Positions 2,956 to 24,115 of a DNA stretch of 64,000 nt are shown here, piece by piece. The position numbers and the translations under genes were made by a program. Source of the stretch: Dictyostelium discoideum (taxonomy: Eukaryota); the NCBI GenBank assembly GCA_000004695.1, contig CM000151.3, positions 7,520,001 to 7,584,000 of the forward strand, read 5' to 3'. Positions within the stretch are counted from its first letter, which is position 1. Each line of letters starts with the position of its first letter. The notes beneath the pieces are model-generated. The model saw only the letters and a program-made list of their open reading frames with translations, was not told the DNA's origin and made no database searches.

Positions 2956-4397
2956 TCTTTTTTATATGAAAAATGAAATAATCAAAAAAAGAGATTGTTG
3001 TTGTTGTTTGTTTTTTTTCGATCTGATTATTTTTTGCTTTTTTTTGAAAATTTTGCTACGCAAAATTCTCAAAACGAAACAAATAATAAATTACAATAAA
3101 GTAAAAAGATGGCTTTTTAAGATAGTTTATTTATTTATTTATTTGTTTTTTAAGTCTTTTTTATATGAAAAATGAAATAATCAAAAAAAGAGATTGTTGT
3201 TGTTGTTTGTTTTTTTTCGATCTGATTATTTTTTGCTTTTTTTTGAAAATTTTGCTACGCAAAATTCTCAAAACGAAACAAATAATAAATTACAATAAAG
3301 TAAAAAGATGGCTTTTTAAGATAGTTTATTTATTTATTTATTTGTTTTTTAAGTCTTTTTTATATGAAAAATGAAATAATCAAAAAAAGAGATTGTTGTT
3401 GTTGTTTGTTTTTTTTCGATCTGATTATTTTTTGCTTTTTTTTGAAAATTTTGCTACGCAAAATTCTCAAAACGAAACAAATAATAAATTACAATAAAGT
3501 AAAAAGATGGCTTTTTAAGATAGTTTATTTATTTATTTATTTGTTTTTTAAGTCTTTTTTATATGAAAAATGAAATAATCAAAAAAAGAGATTGTTGTTG
3601 TTGTTTGTTTTTTTTCGATCTGATTATTTTTTGCTTTTTTTTGAAAATTTTGCTACGCAAAATTCTCAAAACGAAACAAATAATAAATTACAATAAAGTA
3701 AAAAGATGGCTTTTTAAGATAGTTTATTTATTTATTTATTTGTTTTTTAAGTCTTTTTTATATGAAAAATGAAATAATCAAAAAAAGAGATTGTTGTTGT
3801 TGTTTGTTTTTTTTCGATCTGATTATTTTTTGCTTTTTTTTGAAAATTTTGCTACGCAAAATTCTCAAAACGAAACAAATAATAAATTACAATAAAGTAA
3901 AAAGATGGCTTTTTAAGATAGTTTATTTATTTATTTATTTGTTTTTTAAGTCTTTTTTATATGAAAAATGAAATAATCAAAAAAAGAGATTGTTGTTGTT
4001 GTTTGTTTTTTTTCGATCTGATTATTTTTTGCTTTTTTTTGAAAATTTTGCTACGCAAAATTCTCAAAACGAAACAAATAATAAATTACAATAAAGTAAA
4101 AAGATGGCTTTTTAAGATAGTTTATTTATTTATTTATTTGTTTTTTAAGTCTTTTTTATATGAAAAATGAAATAATCAAAAAAAGAGATTGTTGTTGTTG
4201 TTTGTTTTTTTTCGATCTGATTATTTTTTGCTTTTTTTTGAAAATTTTGCTACGCAAAATTCTCAAAACGAAACAAATAATAAATTACAATAAAGTAAAA
4301 AGATGGCTTTTTAAGATAGTTTATTTATTTATTTATTTGTTTTTTAAGTCTTTTTTATATGAAAAATGAAATAATCAAAAAAAGAGATTGTTGTTGT
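2953..4397. repeat. Tandem array of 7.2 copies of a 199-bp unit (TRE5-A A-module, which contains the promoter)
   Basis: ORF-track artefacts at 2966, 3165, 3364, 3563, 3762, 3961 and 4160 are exactly 199 bp apart and have identical translations. The last partial copy ends in ...gagattgttgttgttgtttctatgatttcag at about 4397. Confidence 0.9.
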
Positions 4398-4450: not shown

Positions 4451-4521
4451 GGGAGATTAGTTAAGTGGTATAATGCTACCTTTGGGTGGTAGCGTCCTGA
4501 GTTCGATTCTCGGATCTCCCC
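4451..4521 (+). tRNA. tRNA-Pro (anticodon UGG), 71 nt, no encoded CCA, followed by a T-rich Pol III terminator
   Basis: Hand-folded cloverleaf. Acceptor GGGAGAT pairs with ATCTCCC. D-stem is GTTA/TAAT with a GG-containing loop. Anticodon stem is CTACC/GGTAG with loop TTTGGGT (U33, anticodon TGG, G37). T-arm is CTGAG-TTCGATT-CTCGG. Discriminator C is followed by 'attctttta'. Confidence 0.75.
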
Positions 4522-5813: not shown

Positions 5814-7903
5814 TAAATTTAATGATAAAGACAATTGATTTGAATCATTTAAATTTGAATTTGAATGTAATTGTGGTAACATAACAACAGGAAAACCATT
5901 ATGTGGACAAGTTTCTAAAATTGTTAAAGCTGTTTTAACTTTTACAATTTCAGGTAAAGTTTTTACATCAGTTGACATTGCTTCAGCAACGGTTTTCTTT
6001 CTAAGATGATTTGGTGGTTGACTATTTAAGTAAGGGATATGTTTTAATTCAATTAAATGTTCATAAATACTTTCATTGAAAATGTCACCACACCATTTAC
6101 CAACCATTACAGATAAAATTACAGGTAAAAGATATTGAGTAGTTTCTGTAAGTTCAACGATAATAACAACCAATGAAATTGTCATTCTTAATGAACCAGC
6201 CATCATACTAGCGGCACCAATTAGGGCATAGATTGAAGGATCGATCGATGTGAAATATTTTGATAAAAATATACCAATTAATCTACCCCAAGAACTACCA
6301 ATTAACATCATTGGAATGAAAATACCACTTGCAACATATAAACCACTTGTAATAATAGTCAAAACATAATAAAATATTGAAAATGTTAAAAGTGTTTGAG
6401 CTGTGAAAATATTTGTTGATCTACTGAATACAATTTGTAAAGAATTCTCCAAGGTTGTTAATGTTAATGTTGCCATTGGATTATAATAACCCTCGGCACA
6501 ATTGAATTGATTTAAAATCAGTGTAGAATCATCACCTGGGTCACATGTACCCGGTGTTAATCCTGATATACCACTGATGGGTCTACAATCTGCTAATAGA
6601 GCTGGAAAGAAACAAACTACTGATGACAATATTACAATTACACAAACTTCTATCATTTTATAAAGTTTTGATTTATTTGCAAATAATTTCTTTCTCCAAT
6701 GATTGACACGTACATTAACATGTACGAAAATGGCACCTAATAAGCCACCAATAATACCCATAATCATAAATGGTATCAACTCAGTGTAGGTGTAAAGATA
6801 GGATTTTGAAACACCAAATGTCAATACACCATAGTCATGAATTTGTTGAGTGAAACCTTGTAAAAACAAATTTGCAGTCATGGTTGCAATTAGACAGGAG
6901 AAAAAGGTACGCCATGTTAACTGACGAGACCAAAATGATGAGCCCTCTTCCAAGCAAAACAAAACCCCACCAATTGGTGCACCAAAAGCTGCAGCAATAC
7001 CAGCAGCAGCACCACATGATATAAAATCACGTTTATCACTATCGTTTTGAAAGATCCAAAATGATTTCAAGTGAAATTTCAATGTTTTCGATTTGAATTG
7101 ACTCATTGATGATCCAATACCTGCACCAATATGAAACATTGGTCCCTCTGGTCCCAATACTAATCCCGATGAAAATGAAAATATTAATGATACCAATTTA
7201 CCCAATACTGTTTTCAAATTGAATGCTTTTGAAATTCTTATTCCATTTAAATAACCTTTTACTTCTGGTAAACCTGATGAACTTGACATTGGTCCAAATA
7301 TACAAACTAATAAACCACTAATTAAACCATAACATAAATTAAATCCTAAATAAACTAAAAATGGTATAAATATTGTTGATTCTGTTGAATAAACTATAGT
7401 TTTAAAAATAAAAAGAAATAAAATTATAGTTGTTAATAAATTTTATAAAAATTTTTTTTTTATTTTTTTTTTTTATTTTTTTTTTCAAAAAAAAACTTAC
7501 ACTTTTTAACTTGAGTTAATTTAAGTGATTGTAATTGATCAACAGATTCTTTTAAACAATAACAAACTAAACCAACAACGACACCAATTAGAGTACAAAT
7601 TACCCATTTACCTAAAGTTTTTAAAATTTTTTGATATTTCTTTTTTTCAAATGTATATTTCCTATGAATTATATTATCGATTGCATTAAAATCTAAACTT
7701 TCAAAATGACTCATCAATTCTCTATCGGTTTTAGTTGTCATTTTATGATGTCTTCTATGAGTTATTGATGTCTGATTACCTCCAAAAAAGTTTTTACCAC
7801 TAAAAAATCCATTATCTGTATCACAATCTTTATTTCCATCAATATTTAATAATAAATAATCATTACCATTTATTGCCGTACCTGCTTTATAATTATTACT
7901 CAT
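5349..7903 (-). CDS. ClC-family voltage-gated chloride channel/antiporter with C-terminal CBS domains. Model is complement(join(5349..7354,7501..7903)), about 802 aa.
   Basis: Exon 1 (7903->7501) encodes an ...[11 protein letters not shown]... N-terminus and one TM helix. The donor is aag t|GTAAGT at 7500 and the acceptor is tttttAG| at 7355, giving a 146-bp AT-rich intron in phase 1. Exon 2 carries the ClC signatures G(S/L)PEVK, GPEGP and GxFxP, then a CBS pair split by a 28x AAT (poly-N) tract. Confidence 0.8.
5737..5820. repeat. (AAT)28 coding microsatellite encoding poly-N in the ClC CBS-domain linker
   Basis: A perfect run of attattatt... on the plus strand, which reads AAT codons on the minus strand. 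Confidence 0.9.
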
Positions 7904-8418
7904 ATTTTTTTTTTTTTTTTTTTATTATTATTTCGTTATTATTATTATTATTATTATTATTTTTGTTTTTTATTTTAATCTATTATTATTATTATTATTT
8001 TTATTATTTTGTTTATTTAAAAAACGAAAAATAAAAATAGTGTATTCAAAGCTTTAAATACGTTTATTATTGTTTTATTTTTATTTTTTTTATTTTTTTT
8101 TTTTTTTCTTTTTGAGAAAAAAAAATTAAAAATAAAAAAAAAAAGTTTTTAGTTTCCTCAAAAATTACCTTTAGCCAAAAAAAAAAAATAAAAAAAAAAA
8201 AAAAAAATCAAAAAAAAAAAAAATCAAACCCAATTTCGTTTGATTGAATATTATTTTAAATTAAATTAATAAAAAAATAAAAAAAAGTGGTATTTGTTGA
8301 TCTTAATCATTCGAAACAAATATCTTTGGTTGGGTGATTATATTTTATTATTTTATTTTTTTTAATTTTTTTTTATTTTCCAAAACACACTCCAACCACA
8401 CCATTTTTTTTTTGCTAT

Positions 8419-17011: not shown

Positions 17012-18754
17012 ATGAGACTATATTTATTATCGCTAATATTAGTGTTTTATGCTAGTGTATCAAGTGCTTCACTTGATAGTGTAAATTTTGGTAGAGGCGG
17101 TGGCTGGGGAAGTGGAAACCAAGGTGTACTTTGTGGAACACATTATTGTCCACCAGGTTCAACTTGTGAAAGTAAACATGGTCACTATATTTGTAGACCA
17201 GGTGGTTTAATAAGTAAGTTTTGAAAATTTTTTTATAAATATTTATTTTTATTTTATTTTTCTAATATTTTAAAAAATTATATATCTAAATTTTTATTAC
17301 AGCTGCTCCAAGTGGTGGTGATAGTGGTGGTATTTGGACAGGTGGTGATAAACATAAAAAAGATTGTGGTGGCACAGGATGTTGTAAAGAAGGTCAATAT
17401 TGTACCAAACTTGATGGAAAAGAACAATGTGTATATTATCCAGATGACAAAGGTCCACAATGTGGTGGTTCATTCTGTAGAGAAGGTGAAATTTGTGTTT
17501 TAGAACATGGTGTTTTGGGTTGTCTTGAAAATCCAGTTGAAGATAGTAAAGGTAAATATTTAAATATTTTTATTTTAAATCTATAATAATTATTTTTTAT
17601 AAAATTAATTTAATAACATTTTAAATTTTTTTTTTTTTTTATTAATATTTCTATTACTAGCAAATTGTGGTTTATTCCATTGTAATTACAATGAATATTG
17701 TATTATGGTTAATGGTTATCTTCAATGTTTATTCTCAAATGGTACTGCACCATTTGCATGTGGTCTCCAAACTTGTGTTCCACCACAATTATGTGTAAAG
17801 GTTGAAAATTGTCAACAATGTGTTTCTCCACCAAGACCAGACAATAACTGTGGTGACAAATATTGTGATGATGAACATCAATGTGTTAGAAAAGGACTCG
17901 GTTATGAATGTATTCCAAAACGTCTTACTTGTGAGACCAAAAAATGCGAAGCCTCTCAAGTTTGTATCATGGTAAATGGTGATGCTCAATGTATCGTACC
18001 ACCAGCTGCCGCCGCTGCTGAAATTAGAATAAACAATTTCAGATTCAACCGTAACTCTGTTCAACGTAATGCCAAACCAGCTCAACAACAAAGATCTGCT
18101 CAACATGCCAAACCAGCTCAACATGGTAAACCAGCTCAACATGCCACTCAACAACAACATGCCAAACCAGCCCAAAATGCTAAACCAGTTCAACATAACG
18201 CCCAACAACAACATGCCAAACCAGCTCAACATGCCGCTCAACAACAACATGCCAAACCAGCTCAACATGTCGCTCAACAACAACAACAACAACACGCCAA
18301 ACCAGCTGCTCATACTGCTGCCAAACCAGTTCAACATAATGCCCAACAACAACATGCTAAACCAGCTGCTCATACTGCTGCCAAACCAGTTCAACACAAT
18401 GCTGCTCAACAACATGCTAAACCAGCTGCCCATGGCGCCAAACCAGCTGTTAATGCTGCCAGACCAGTTCAACACAATGCTGCTCAACAACATGCTAAAC
18501 CAGCTGCTCATACTGCTGCCAAACCAGTTCAACACAATGCTGCTCAACAACATGCTAAACCAGCTGCCAAACCAGCCAAATTAACCAATGCCCAAAAATT
18601 ACAACAAGAACACCAAAGACAAGAAGCTCTCGCAAAACAACAAGCTCGTATTAGACAACAAAATCTTGTCAAACAAGCTGCCCAAAAGAAACAAACCTCT
18701 CAACGTGCTGCCTCTAAAAATCAAGCTAGACCAGCAACTCAAAAGAGAAATTAA
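17012..18754 (+). CDS. Secreted cysteine-rich modular protein with EGF/follistatin-like C-x-x-C modules and a C-terminal A/Q/H/K/P-rich tandem repeat of ~11 aa (AQQQHAKPAQH) in about 14 copies. Model is join(17012..17213,17303..17551,17661..18754), about 514 aa.
   Basis: The N-terminus has a signal peptide, MRLYLLSLILVFYASVSSA. Donors are GTAAGT and GTAAAT, acceptors are AG, and both introns are phase 1. Modules of the form C..YC.PG..C....G.Y.C recur. The overall look resembles a Dictyostelium spore-coat or extracellular-matrix protein. Confidence 0.65.
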
Positions 18755-19236
18755 ATTTATTATTTAGTATAATTATACAATTGAAAAATTATAAATTGAG
18801 ATTTCTTTTTGTTGGTGATAGGTATTCAATAGATACACGAACTTTCAAATCATTTTTCAATTTCTTTTATTTACCAATTGTTAAAACTCATTTTATTTTA
18901 TTTTTATCTCTTACATATCTCTTTTTCTATTAATAATAAAAATAATAATATTACAAAAAAAAAAAAAAAACAAAAAAAAAAAAAAAAAAAACAAAATAAA
19001 ACAATATTTTTTTAAAAAAAAAAAAAAAAAAGAAAATTTATATTTTTAAATAATTTTTTTATACAACTAATAACTCTTTTATTTATTTTTTTATTTATAG
19101 TCATTATTTTTTTTTTTTGAACCTGTTAATAATAATAATAAATAAAAAAATGATTAGAAAAATCCAGTTTTTTTTTTTTCTTTTTTTTTTTTTTTTATTT
19201 TCTATTTTTTTTTTTTAATAACATTTAAGATAGTTT

Positions 19237-19309
19237 GTCAGACAATAAAAATAAGGAACAAAGTTTTTTGTCGTCATCGTGGTCGGTGTGAGCTGAGGAA
19301 TACATCATT
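19237..19309 (-). ncRNA. Box C/D snoRNA candidate, copy 1 (~73 nt core, with a 13-15-bp terminal stem spanning 19223..19323)
   Basis: Minus strand reads 5'-cattTAAGATAGTTT-a-ATGATGT(box C)-attcctcagctcacaccgaccacg-ATGACGA(C'-like)-caaaaaactttgttccttatttttattgt-CTGA(box D)-c-AAACTATCTTAaatg-3'. The flanks are perfect inverted repeats that bring the C and D boxes together. Confidence 0.6.
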
Positions 19310-19516
19310 AAACTATCTTAAATGAATTTAAAATAAAAATAGTTTTAAAATAAAACTTACCAATTGAAAACAAAGAAAAAAAAAAAAGTTTGGAAAAATG
19401 AAAAAGTAAAAAAGAAAAAGTAATCTATTTTTAAAAAAAGAAAATTTATATTAGAATTTGCTATTAAAATATAATTAAAATAAATTTAATTGATTCAATG
19501 CCATGTATAAATTTTT

Positions 19517-19589
19517 GTCAGACAATAAAAATAAGGAACAAAGTTTTTTGTCGTCATCGTGGTCGGTGTGAGCTGAGGAATACATCATT
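19517..19589 (-). ncRNA. Box C/D snoRNA candidate, copy 2 (core identical to copy 1, different flanks with a weaker terminal stem)
   Basis: A 73-nt core identical to copy 1 lies 280 bp away. The same C box (AUGAUGU) and D box (CUGA) are present. Confidence 0.5.
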
Positions 19590-19871
19590 GAATTATTTTT
19601 GTCTCTTTTTTTTTTTTTTTTTTTTTTCAAAAAACAAATAATAGCGATAATTATAAAACTTACCAAAATAACTCTTATGCAAAAAAGCGATCAGAAATGA
19701 AAATGAAAAAAAAAAAAAAAAAATTCTTTTTGAAAAAAAAAAAAAAATTTTTAAAAAAAAAAAGAAAATAAAAAAAATTCTTTTTAAAAAAAAAAAAAAA
19801 AAAAACGAGTGTTGAAATTATTGCCCGACCTTTTTCTAAAAAGTTTTAAAATTTTATAATTTTTATAATAA

Positions 19872-19876
19872 TAATA

Positions 19877-19963
<87 letters not shown>

Positions 19964-19968
19964 TGTTT
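19872..19968. repeat. (ATT)~32 intergenic microsatellite
   Basis: A run of ataataataattattattatt... Confidence 0.9.
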
Positions 19969-20395
19969 ATTTATTCCTATATCTTTAAACAATTAATTTG
20001 AAACAATATTTTTTGGTAAATTTCCCAAGAAAAAATGCATAAAAAAAAAAAAAAAAAAAAACCAAATACAGTGGTTTGAAATAAAAAAAAAATAAAAAAT
20101 AAAAAATTAGGGGTTTTCTCAAATCTTACCTAAAATTTTTTTTACAAATAAATACCTTTTTTGATTTTAATTTTTAGTTTTTTATTTTTTTTTATTATTT
20201 GATTAGGAAATAACACCGGGCAATTATTATTTTCTATGGCAAAAAAATTTTTAGTTTTTTTTATGAGAATTTTATAAAAAATTTTATTTTTTTTTTTATT
20301 TTTTTTTTCTTTTTTTTATTTTTTTTTTTCGTGATTCAAATTTTTTTTTTTTTTTTTTTTTTTTATTGTTTTTTAAACACACAGGGTATTTCAAA

Positions 20396-21303
20396 ATGAG
20401 GTAAATATTTATACATTTAATTATTCAAATACTATTAGTAAATAAAAAATAAAAAAATTAGATGAAAAAAAATAAATAAAATAGAACAAATAAATGAAAA
20501 TGAAATAGAATAAATAAAAATGAAATAAAATTTAAAAGATAACAAAATAACGATAATGGAAAACAAAATAAAAAAAATAAATGAATTGAAATAAAATAAA
20601 AAAATAAAATAAAATAAATAATTAATATGTATATTTTTTAAAATAATATAATAGCAAAATCTCAAGCGACCAAGTTAGATCAATCGTCTCCCAACTTTTC
20701 AAAGAAGCACAAGAATCCAAAAGAGGTTTCTTAGAAACTGTTGAACTCCAAATCAACTTAAAGAATTATGATACCAAGAAAGATAAGCGTTTCTCTGGTC
20801 AAATCAAAATCGGTACCGTCACCAAACCAAAATTAAGCGTTTGTGTCTTTGCTGATCAACAACATTGTGATGAAGCCACTAAAATCGGTGCTGAATTCAT
20901 GGATATTGAAGCCTTAAAGAAAATCGGTCCAAAGAACAAGAAAGCCATCAAGAAGCTCTCAAAGAAATACGATGCTTTCTTAGCCTCTGAATCTATCTTA
21001 CGTCAAGTTCCAAAACTCTTAGGTCCAGGTCTCAACAAGGTCGGTAAATTCCCAACCCTCCTTACTCACTCTGAAGATATGGCCTCAAAGATCAATGATG
21101 TCAAATCAACCGTCAAATTCCAACTTAAGAAAGTTTTATGTTTAGCCGTCGCTGTCGGTCACATCGAATTAACTGAAAGAGAAGTTGCCACCAACATCAT
21201 TCAATCAATTAATTTCTTAGTCTCCCTCTTAAAGAAAGGATGGCAAAATATTAAGACTTTATACGTCAAAACCTCTATGGGTCCATCACACCGTGTCTAC
21301 TAA
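20396..21303 (+). CDS. rpl10a: 60S ribosomal protein L10a (uL1). Model is join(20396..20400,20655..21303), 217 aa.
   Basis: A 5-nt first exon, ATGAG|GTAAAT, is followed by a 254-bp intron and ...aatAG|C. The product [50 protein letters not shown]...[14 protein letters not shown]...[29 protein letters not shown] aligns along the whole length of human RPL10A and has the same 217-aa length. Confidence 0.9.
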
Positions 21304-21979: not shown

Positions 21980-24115
21980 ATGCAAAGAACACTTAGTAAA
22001 GTTATATTGAATAGTGGTAAAAATAATTTACTTAAATCAAGTAATTTATTAAATTCAAATTTATTAAAAGCAACCACTACAAATATAATTGGAATTAAAA
22101 CAATTAATAACAATAACAATGTTAATAGTATTATTGGTTTCAAAAGTTTAAATAAAAGATATTTTACAAGTAATACACCAAAAGTTGAAGAGGAAGATGA
22201 TGAAATTGCACCAGATGAAGCAATTAAAGCAGAGGAAAAAATTAAAGAAACTGAAAGAGTAATTGGTTTATCAGAGAAATTATCATTCCAAACTGAAACT
22301 CAAAAGATTTTACATATTGTAGCAGAAAGTTTATACACAGAAAAGGAAGTTTTCATTAGAGAATTAATTTCAAATGCATCAGATGCAATTGAAAAGGTTA
22401 GACATACTCAATTGACAAATGCATCAATGATTGAGGATGCATCAATTCCATTTGAAATTAAAATTTCAACTGATGAAGATAATAAAACATTGATCATTCA
22501 AGATTCAGGTATTGGTATGACAAAAGATGAAATGATAAAGAATCTTGGTAAGATTGGTTATAGTGGTAGTAGTGATTTCATTAAGAAACTTGGAGAGAAT
22601 CCAGATAAAGCATCTATTATTGGTCAATTTGGTGTTGGTTTCTACAGTTGTTTCATGGTTGGTCATACAATTAAAATCTATACTAAATCAGCTACACCAG
22701 GATCAAAAGGTTATTTATGGGAAAGTGATGGTACCGGTAGTTATTCAATCACTGAAGCAGAGGGTGTTTCACGTGGTACAAAGATTATCATTCATTTGAA
22801 ACCAAGTTCCTATGAATATAGTAAGAAATCAATCGTTGAAAATATCATTAAAAAGTATAGCAATTTCGTTGGATTCCCAATCGCTTTGAATGGTACCACT
22901 GTAAATACAATTAAACCATTATGGACCTTAAATAAGAATGCGATCTCTGAAGAAGAACACAAAGAATTCTATCAATTCCTTAGTAAATCATATGATACTC
23001 CATCTTATAGAGTTCACTTTTCAACCGATACACCATTATCAATTCGTTCAATCTTTTATATTCCATCTCAACATATGGAGAAATATGGTATGGGTAAAAT
23101 GGAACCAGGTGTTTCATTATTCTCAAGAAAGGTATTAATTCAACAAAAAGCCAATGGTATCTTACCAGAATGGATGCGTTTCGTACGTGGTGTCGTTGAT
23201 AGTGAAGATATCCCATTAAACGTTTCTCGTGAACATTTACAAGATAATGGTTTAATTCAAAGAATTTCCTCAGTTTTAGTTAAAAGAATCTTAAAACATT
23301 TAAATGATGAAGCTAAAAGTGATCCAGAGAAATTCAATGTATTTATGACTGAATTTGGTGGTTTCTTCAAAGAGGGTATTATCACCGATTTCAAATGGAA
23401 AGATGAAATCTCAAAACTCTTAAGATTCGAATCTTCAAATGGTTCTACCGCCTCTAAAACTGACGCTGTTTCATTGGAACAATACGTTTCTCGTATGAAA
23501 CCAGAACAAAAAAATATTTATTTCTTATCAGTCCCAAATCGTGCCGTTGGTTTATCATCCCCATACTATGAACCATTCCAATTGAAAGATATTGAAGTCA
23601 TCTTTTTATATAACGCCGTTGACGAATTCGTCTTAACAAATGTCGGTCACTTTGGTGACAAGAAAATCGTTTCTGTAGAATCAAAAGAAGCTGAAGAATT
23701 TTTAGCAACAAATCAAGACAAAAAGACTGAAACCCTCTCTCAAGATGAAATCGATAAATTTTTATCATGGGTTTCCACCGTCGCTTCAGATAAAGTCACT
23801 CAAGCAAAATCAACAACTCGTTCAATCTCTTCACCAGCTATTATCATCGATCATGAATCTGCAAACTTCCGTCGTATGTTGAAAATGGTTGAACCTGGTA
23901 AACAACATGAAACTCCAAAACAAGTCGTTGAATTCAATATGAATCATCCAATTATCTTGAAATTAGTTCAACAAACTGAATCAAATCCAACAATCGCAAA
24001 ATTAGTTATTGACCAAGTTGTTGATAATGCTTTCGTTAGTGCTGGTTTAATTGAAGATAATAGAGAAATGATTCCACGTATTAATCAATTATTAGATTCA
24101 TTATTAACAAAATAA
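21980..24115 (+). CDS. trap1: TRAP1, a mitochondrial HSP90-family chaperone, 711 aa, single exon
   Basis: N-terminal presequence, then ...QTETQKILHIVAESLYTEKEVFIRELISNASDAIEKVRH... (HSP90 ATP-binding signature IRELISNASDA), and a full-length HSP90 middle and C-terminal domain without MEEVD. Confidence 0.85.
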   Translation: MQRTLSKVILNSGKNNLLKSSNLLNSNLLKATTTNIIGIKTINNNNNVNSIIGFKSLNKRYFTSNTPKVEEEDDEIAPDEAIKAEEKIKETERVIGLSEKLSFQTETQKILHIVAESLYTEKEVFIRELISNASDAIEKVRHTQLTNASMIEDASIPFEIKISTDEDNKTLIIQDSGIGMTKDEMIKNLGKIGYSGSSDFIKKLGENPDKASIIGQFGVGFYSCFMVGHTIKIYTKSATPGSKGYLWESDGTGSYSITEAEGVSRGTKIIIHLKPSSYEYSKKSIVENIIKKYSNFVGFPIALNGTTVNTIKPLWTLNKNAISEEEHKEFYQFLSKSYDTPSYRVHFSTDTPLSIRSIFYIPSQHMEKYGMGKMEPGVSLFSRKVLIQQKANGILPEWMRFVRGVVDSEDIPLNVSREHLQDNGLIQRISSVLVKRILKHLNDEAKSDPEKFNVFMTEFGGFFKEGIITDFKWKDEISKLLRFESSNGSTASKTDAVSLEQYVSRMKPEQKNIYFLSVPNRAVGLSSPYYEPFQLKDIEVIFLYNAVDEFVLTNVGHFGDKKIVSVESKEAEEFLATNQDKKTETLSQDEIDKFLSWVSTVASDKVTQAKSTTRSISSPAIIIDHESANFRRMLKMVEPGKQHETPKQVVEFNMNHPIILKLVQQTESNPTIAKLVIDQVVDNAFVSAGLIEDNREMIPRINQLLDSLLTK

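Follow-up and report, generated by a model that had tools for sequence, protein, structure and literature searches.

Conserved splice-like signals suggest a non-coding host gene for the CD11 box C/D snoRNAs of Dictyostelium discoideum

The 64-kb stretch of Dictyostelium discoideum DNA analysed here, referred to as the window, harbours two tandem copies of a box C/D snoRNA, CD11a and CD11b (DdR11). A repetitive protein gene flanks the cluster on one side; on the other side, and on the opposite strand, come rpl10a and then TRAP1 (Table 1). The spliced translation of rpl10a is 217 aa long, is 92% identical to L10a of D. purpureum and matches PF00687. TRAP1 (mitochondrial Hsp90; 21980–24115, plus strand) is intron-less and encodes 711 aa, a length identical to that of the AX4 entry, and its linkage to rpl10a is kept in group-4 Dictyostelium species only. 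The open reading frame at 17705–18754 (plus strand) encodes a protein that is Cys-rich in its N-terminal part and thereafter carries many HAKPAQ/AAKPVQHNA-type repeats, and a GTAAGT at 17214 suggests an upstream exon for it. A tRNA gene is found at 4451–4521 on the plus strand (Rfam RF00005, 57 bits).

Table 1. Features of the CD11–rpl10a region, in window coordinates unless another locus is named
Feature	Position	Strand	Remarks
rpl10a (ribosomal protein L10a/uL1)	20396–21303	+	exon 1 20396–20400 (ATGAG/GTAAAT), intron 20401–20654, exon 2 20655–21303
CGGGCAATTAT box, upstream of rpl10a	20217–20227	+	mirrors the 19817–19827 box
CGGGCAATAAT box, upstream of predicted host gene, candidate promoter element	19817–19827	-	exact match
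Predicted exon 1	19664–19790	-	upper bound arbitrary; downstream of conserved CGGGCAATAAT box
Predicted intron 1, 239 nt, holds CD11a	19425–19663	-	5′ splice site ttg/GTAAGTTT at 19663
CD11a (DdR11) box C/D snoRNA, upstream copy	19516–19591	-	Rfam RF01561, 106.0 bits, model 1–76 of 76
Predicted non-coding exon 2, 64 nt, T-rich, no ORF	19361–19424	-	sequence not conserved in D. purpureum
Predicted intron 2, 238 nt, holds CD11b	19123–19360	-	5′ splice site ttg/GTAAGTTT at 19360
External precursor-level stem around CD11b	19223–19323	-	arms 19323–19310 and 19236–19223, perfect 14 bp
CD11b (DdR11) box C/D snoRNA, downstream copy	19236–19311	-	Rfam RF01561, 106.7 bits, model 1–76 of 76
Predicted last exon	19040–19122	-	AATAAA signals start at 19095 and 19087
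Span of CD11 copies, D. discoideum (window)	19236–19591
Span of CD11 copies, D. firmibasis (L001)	7006–7710
Span of CD11 copies, D. purpureum (L002)	7305–7936
Span of CD11 copies, D. dimigraforme (L132)	2010–2717
Span of CD11 copy, Polysphondylium violaceum (L007)	about 7570–7643

An Rfam scan at curated thresholds assigned both repeats to RF01561 ('Dictyostelium snoRNA DdR11'; gathering score 65 bits), whose consensus is 100% and 99% identical to the two window copies. The proposal of two tandem box C/D snoRNAs on the minus strand, made in an initial annotation of the window, is thereby borne out, and the boxes are as described there: both copies carry the C box AUGAUGU, the C′ box UGACGA and the D box CUGA, and the D′ box of CD11a is degenerate (CCGA). 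The copies follow each other with the 280-nt period previously noted. The core reported as 73 identical nucleotides is indeed identical but was given too short, the longest identical run being 76 nt (19589–19514 and 19309–19234), and one mismatch is found across the 76 nt that Rfam defines. When placed beside the published Dictyostelium C/D set, the RNA proved to be DdR11/CD11a,b, an identity that the initial annotation had missed. Adding 7,520,000 to the window coordinates gives the published positions, chr2 7539516–7539591 (minus) for CD11a and 7539236–7539311 (minus) for CD11b, 76 nt each (Table S5, Diesend et al. 2022, PMC8817022), and the GC contents agree too; the window accordingly spans positions 7,520,001–7,584,000 of chromosome 2. 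The DdR box C/D RNAs were renamed CD RNAs in the same study, where expression of CD11 is supported by cDNA cloning and RNA-seq and where an oligo for primer extension on CD11a/b is listed in the supplement (Diesend et al. 2022, PMC8817022). The DdR11/CD11a,b RNA of D. discoideum (Rfam RF01561; Aspegren et al. 2004; PMC8817022) is the same object in sequence, strand, copy number and target; copies, strand, expression and rRNA target are all known, and the RNA presented here is a rediscovery. The snR71 family (RF00479, clan CL00051) scored 25.5 bits (E = 0.22), below its gathering score of 60, with only the guide and the boxes aligning, and a metagenome scan with the conserved core CAGCTCACACCRACCACRATGACGA returned 0 matches.

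The D′ guide CUCAGCUCAC is located at 19577–19568 in CD11a and at 19297–19288 in CD11b, the C-to-D′ element being AUUCCUCAGCUCACA. With GUGAGCUGGG the guide forms a 10-bp duplex of −18.4 kcal/mol, equalled by 1 of 500 shuffles; the target was taken from a 45-nt rRNA segment, AAUAGGGAACGUGAGCUGGGUUUAGACCGUCGUGAGACAGGUUAG, which is generic eukaryotic LSU sequence and not Dictyostelium's own. This segment was found in more than 120 metagenome contigs, and Rfam assigns it to eukaryotic LSU rRNA. Counting upstream from D′, the fifth nucleotide is a U that pairs with the A of GUGAGC, which we take to be A2946 in yeast numbering. In Dictyostelium, 26S Am3279 has been mapped by RiboMeth-seq and assigned to CD11 (Diesend et al. 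2022, PMC8817022), and this position is equivalent to yeast Am2946 (snR71), human Am4493 (U29) and Arabidopsis Am2936 (PMC8817022). That CD11 directs 2′-O-methylation of 26S Am3279 in domain V by way of its D′ guide is established in the literature and is reproduced here at the sequence level. The mature 76-nt RNA would enter a box C/D snoRNP, in which the D′ antisense element would pair with its complement in 26S domain V.

Yeast snR71, human U29 (SNORD29) and Arabidopsis AtU29 have the methylated position (yeast A2946, human A4493) and the antisense core CUCAGCUCAC in common with CD11. The guide core is also common to CD11 and the Rfam snR71 consensus, and the weak snR71 match aligns exactly on the guide. 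Outside the guide, however, snR71 and CD11 show little likeness, and the relation is one of functional equivalence rather than of demonstrable family membership. Human U29 is encoded within an intron of the non-coding host gene UHG.

The guide had initially been sought upstream of box D, and in this respect the annotation did not hold, since the Am3279 guide sits upstream of D′; the rRNA complementarity anticipated next to the D or D′ box was accordingly found at D′, as the 10-bp duplex. For the D-side spacer of CD11 a target is unpublished in Table S5 (PMC8817022), and the 10–11 nt adjoining box D differ between species. We rejected the D-box-proximal spacer as a methylation guide because the D′ guide explains the published target and these D-proximal nucleotides vary. 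All 12 copies from the five species compared below conserve UGUUCCUU (19258–19265 and 19538–19545, minus strand) within the D-side spacer, which otherwise varies. This motif can base-pair with AGGGAACG, located in the rRNA directly 5′ of the methylation-guide duplex, and in D. discoideum the AAAC beside UGUUCCUU can pair with GUUU on the 3′ side. This may be an accessory base pairing that helps methylation; a shuffle test of the pairing was significant for P. violaceum only.

All Dictyostelium C/D snoRNA genes except CD38 have been called intergenic, CD11a/b being listed as such (Diesend et al. 2022, PMC8817022), and the clusters have been treated as bi- or tri-cistronic units that are perhaps cut by RNase III (PMC8817022). 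The published context of CD11, an intergenic and bi- or polycistronic set, thus differs from the one-per-intron host gene to which our analysis points, whereas the RNA itself is identical. On the strand of the snoRNAs the motif GGTAAGTTTT occurs 72 nt upstream of CD11a and 49 nt upstream of CD11b, in agreement with the approximately 50–75 nt first noted. The sequence TTGGTAAGTTTTAT has exactly two occurrences in the 64-kb window, and the GT in them begins at 19663 and 19360. GTAAGT occurs 16 times in the window, counting both strands, and for an AT-rich position drawn at random the chance of GTAAGT or GTATGT 45–75 nt upstream is about 0.8% in D. discoideum. In predicted intron 1 a branch-like CTAAT (19454–19450) precedes the 3′ splice site AAAAATAG, which ends at 19425, an alternative AG being available at 19462–19461; the CTAAT and the 3′ flank are conserved with copy 2 of D. 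firmibasis. In predicted intron 2 the branch-like CTAAT is at 19157–19153 and the 3′ splice site TTATTAACAG ends at 19123, and TGGAT..TTCTAA..C, the T-tract and ACAG are conserved in both D. firmibasis and D. dimigraforme. Several AGs are possible in sequence so rich in AT, which leaves the 3′ splice sites ambiguous. No requirement for branch-point motifs is known in Dictyostelium, and the rpl10a intron in the window is without one.

Taken by itself, D. discoideum would allow the repeated 14-mer to be explained as left over from the tandem duplication or from recent recombination. When the repeat units were aligned pairwise, the flanks outside the snoRNA were low-complexity A/T, so that alignment within this genome says nothing on selection of GTAAGT; other species were therefore compared. 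Syntenic loci were located by way of TRAP1 orthologues in D. firmibasis, D. purpureum and D. dimigraforme (for the latter, a TRAP1 cluster member) and by way of the rpl10a orthologue in P. violaceum. Together with D. discoideum, five species were thus available. Besides the two copies of D. discoideum, Rfam detected three each in D. firmibasis, D. purpureum and D. dimigraforme, and a pattern search detected one in P. violaceum. All 12 copies are opposite in strand to rpl10a and within a few hundred bases of its start, and their C and D boxes are unchanged except for the last letter of the C box.

Every one of the 12 copies has GTAAGT or GTATGT 45–84 nt upstream on its own strand, while on the opposite strand the same hexamers were found once in total across all these regions. 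A branch-like (C/T)TAA(C/T) follows 50–84 nt after the 3′ end of each snoRNA, and then a T-rich tract and an AG; it is of the CTAA(C/T) type in 8 of 12 cases (TACTAAC twice, TACTAAT twice) and of the TTAA(C/T) type in four. The introns so predicted are 187–274 nt long and the exons 36–127 nt. In spliced models from four species the longest ATG-initiated ORF has 14–23 codons, without conservation in sequence or position. At random positions, for a 45–75-nt window upstream, either hexamer is expected in 0.8–3.8% per copy or locus, which gives a joint chance of about 6e-8 when the copies within a species are counted as one event and the four species with a control are combined. Judged by these cross-species data, the repeated 14-mer is lifted above chance. 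The spacers of D. purpureum cannot be aligned with those of D. discoideum except at the splice-like signals, and the 5′ sites share the GTAWGT core only, which fits selection on a splice site and not a promoter box or a duplication remnant.

Other loci did not yield the arrangement: synteny is lost at the TRAP1 loci of P. violaceum, T. lacteum, H. album and C. fasciculata, which gave no DdR11 match, and the rpl10a loci of T. lacteum, H. album, A. subglobosum and C. fasciculata gave neither an Rfam match nor an AGCTCAC guide in their intergenic DNA. The CD11–rpl10a arrangement is documented only for group 4 and P. violaceum. The rpl10a genes of H. album (L009 8001–9633) and C. fasciculata (L011 8001–9576) span about 1.6 kb for 220–245 aa, and their introns are therefore unusually long; these introns contain no CD11-like guide and no Rfam match at curated thresholds.

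The perfect terminal stem of 13–15 bp at one copy, with weaker flanks at the other, was recovered as a 14-bp stem at CD11b, where ATTTAAGATAGTTT pairs with AAACTATCTTAAAT (−17.1 kcal/mol; 0 of 300 shuffles as good), and no flanking stem at CD11a (0.0 kcal/mol). External stems aid the processing of intronic C/D snoRNAs. The published snoscan table is in line with this, giving a terminal-stem score to CD11b but not to CD11a (PMC8817022). In copy 1 of D. firmibasis the orthologous stem is kept with a bulge (−16.5 kcal/mol), and strong external stems of −14.6 to −17.1 kcal/mol are found at D. discoideum CD11b, D. firmibasis copies 1 and 2 and the P. violaceum copy. The D. firmibasis orthologue of CD11a retains a CAATGCCA.../...TGGCATT stem (−14.6 kcal/mol). 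At CD11a of D. discoideum (19592–19663) the 3′ arm CATGGCATTG remains and the 5′ arm has been replaced by a poly(A) run, so that the stem is lost. Given this loss, the upstream copy CD11a may be processed less efficiently.

The reading that we favour, with a probability of roughly 0.8, is that a short non-coding host gene with several exons runs along the minus strand, divergent from rpl10a, and that CD11a and CD11b each occupy an intron of it. Intron-encoded snoRNAs in a non-coding host had been suggested from the D. discoideum letters; the suggestion stands as far as the splice-like signals around 12 of 12 copies in five species and the ORFs of at most 23 codons are concerned, and it is from these that we infer splicing. 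A host-gene structure of this kind is well supported by comparative sequence and would contradict the published label 'intergenic'. A full-text literature search returned no paper on a Dictyostelium snoRNA host gene; Aspegren et al. 2004 was outside that search and may already discuss the flanks.

The predicted gene would be transcribed by Pol II from roughly 19800 to 19040 on the minus strand, divergently from rpl10a. A snoRNP would assemble on the C/D motif while this is still inside the intron, helped at copy b by the precursor stem, and splicing would free a lariat whose debranching and exonucleolytic trimming to the snoRNP boundaries would yield mature CD11. The spliced exons would then be a by-product. 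In the intronic snoRNAs of Neurospora and human the 5′ splice site is 41–60 nt from the snoRNA (PMC2780460), a range that the distances in D. discoideum and its relatives match. Hosts of the UHG/GAS5 type, which include the UHG-like box C/D clusters of Neurospora crassa (PMC2780460), have one snoRNA per intron, short non-coding exons, as predicted here, and a 5′ splice site about 40–70 nt upstream of the snoRNA, as at CD11. Unlike those hosts, the CD11 locus carries the same snoRNA in every predicted intron, in a copy number of 1, 2 or 3 depending on the species. It differs also in having a divergent intergenic region in common with a ribosomal protein gene and in that its spliced transcript is predicted from sequence alone.

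Co-transcription of the two copies would not by itself decide how they are released. Bi-cistronic primary transcripts have been obtained by RT-PCR for three of four units, the exception being CD16–CD5 (Diesend et al. 2022, PMC8817022). The clusters among CD1–17 in Table S5 are CD1/9, CD2/13, CD5/16 and CD11a/b (PMC8817022), and by elimination from these coordinates CD11a/b should belong to the four bi-cistronic units that Aspegren et al. described. Co-transcription of CD11a/b has thus probably been shown, and it fits a polycistron and a host gene alike. In a classical polycistron, one unspliced precursor would be cut between the snoRNAs by an RNase III-type enzyme and trimmed, and GTAAGT would be without function. 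This is how Dictyostelium clusters have been described on the basis of their primary transcripts (PMC8817022), and the external stems that flank most copies could signal processing without splicing. Tandem co-transcription as reported for Dictyostelium is also known from the polycistronic clusters of plants, yeast and trypanosomes, which are processed by RNase III and exonucleases, but the members of those clusters are without splice signals around them, whereas every CD11 copy is bracketed by such signals. A polycistron leaves unexplained why GTAAGT or GTATGT on the snoRNA strand and a branch-like motif, T-tract and AG accompany 12 of 12 copies amid spacers that cannot be aligned. Moreover, knockout of the RNase III DrnB left snoRNA levels, those of CD11 included, and methylation essentially unchanged (PMC8817022), as a splicing-dependent route predicts, albeit other nucleases could act in its place. 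We therefore regard the polycistron as improbable.

Still less probable is that the copies are independent mono-cistronic genes with promoters of their own, of which GTAWGT would form an upstream element. A distance of 45–84 nt is roughly promoter-like, and some members of Neurospora clusters have their own putative promoters (PMC2780460). The distance of the motif nevertheless varies by about 40 nt, the motif is the exact spliceosomal 5′ consensus, in every case 3′ splice signals follow the snoRNA as its counterpart, and bi-cistronic transcripts are reported (PMC8817022). The only conserved GC-containing upstream box, CGGGCAATAAT, is moreover present once per cluster and not once per copy. 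Lowest of all we rate a coding host, in which genuine splice sites would place the snoRNAs in introns of an mRNA, either one for a micro-protein or one from an adjacent protein gene. Short ORFs of 14–23 codons do occur in the spliced models, yet these are unconserved between species, the neighbouring genes are on the other strand, and no protein gene has been called in the interval in the annotated D. firmibasis and D. purpureum loci. A coding host gene was rejected on account of ORFs that do not exceed 23 codons and are not conserved.

For the proposed non-coding host gene, a candidate control element is found in the region that separates it from rpl10a. The pattern CGGGCAAT(A/T)AT has exactly two matches in the 64-kb window, one per strand, mirror-oriented and 400 bp apart. 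The mirrored pair is found also in D. firmibasis (L001 7932–7939, minus, and 8273–8280, plus) and in D. dimigraforme (L132 about 2923–2933, minus, and about 3233–3243, plus), and in D. purpureum a diverged box, CGGGCATTAAT, adjoins rpl10a. The mirrored box may be a promoter element common to ribosome-biogenesis genes. Between the promoter region of the host gene and rpl10a there is a long (AAT/ATT)n microsatellite (19873–19965), and a similar (AAT)n run occupies the same place in D. firmibasis (L001 about 8035–8075).

Beyond the known RNA, what is useful in these observations is the gene architecture, a modest refinement of gene structure. We consider it fairly probable, with less assurance than for the host gene itself, that a UHG-like CD11 host goes back at least to the divergence of group-4 Dictyostelium from P. 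violaceum, that it may be co-regulated with rpl10a, and that other bi- and tri-cistronic C/D clusters of D. discoideum may also be hosts with one snoRNA per intron. The published clusters compared are spaced 263–337 nt from start to start (PMC8817022, Table S5), close to the 280-nt period of CD11, which hints at the same organisation in other Dictyostelium clusters. If it applied to them, the count of a single intronic member among 47 Dictyostelium C/D snoRNAs would be overturned, and the negative DrnB result would be explained by clusters that are spliced hosts. Amoebozoa would then join animals and fungi in having non-coding hosts with one snoRNA per intron, and snoRNA output would be coupled to splicing and to a promoter region held in common with a ribosomal-protein gene.

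The copies within a species also share species-specific substitutions, exemplified by GAUGAAAAAC in all D. firmibasis copies against GACAAAAAAC in D. discoideum, and the flanks reveal one-to-one orthology between D. discoideum and D. firmibasis. The variation in copy number and the shared substitutions point to concerted evolution or unequal crossing-over within the putative host gene.
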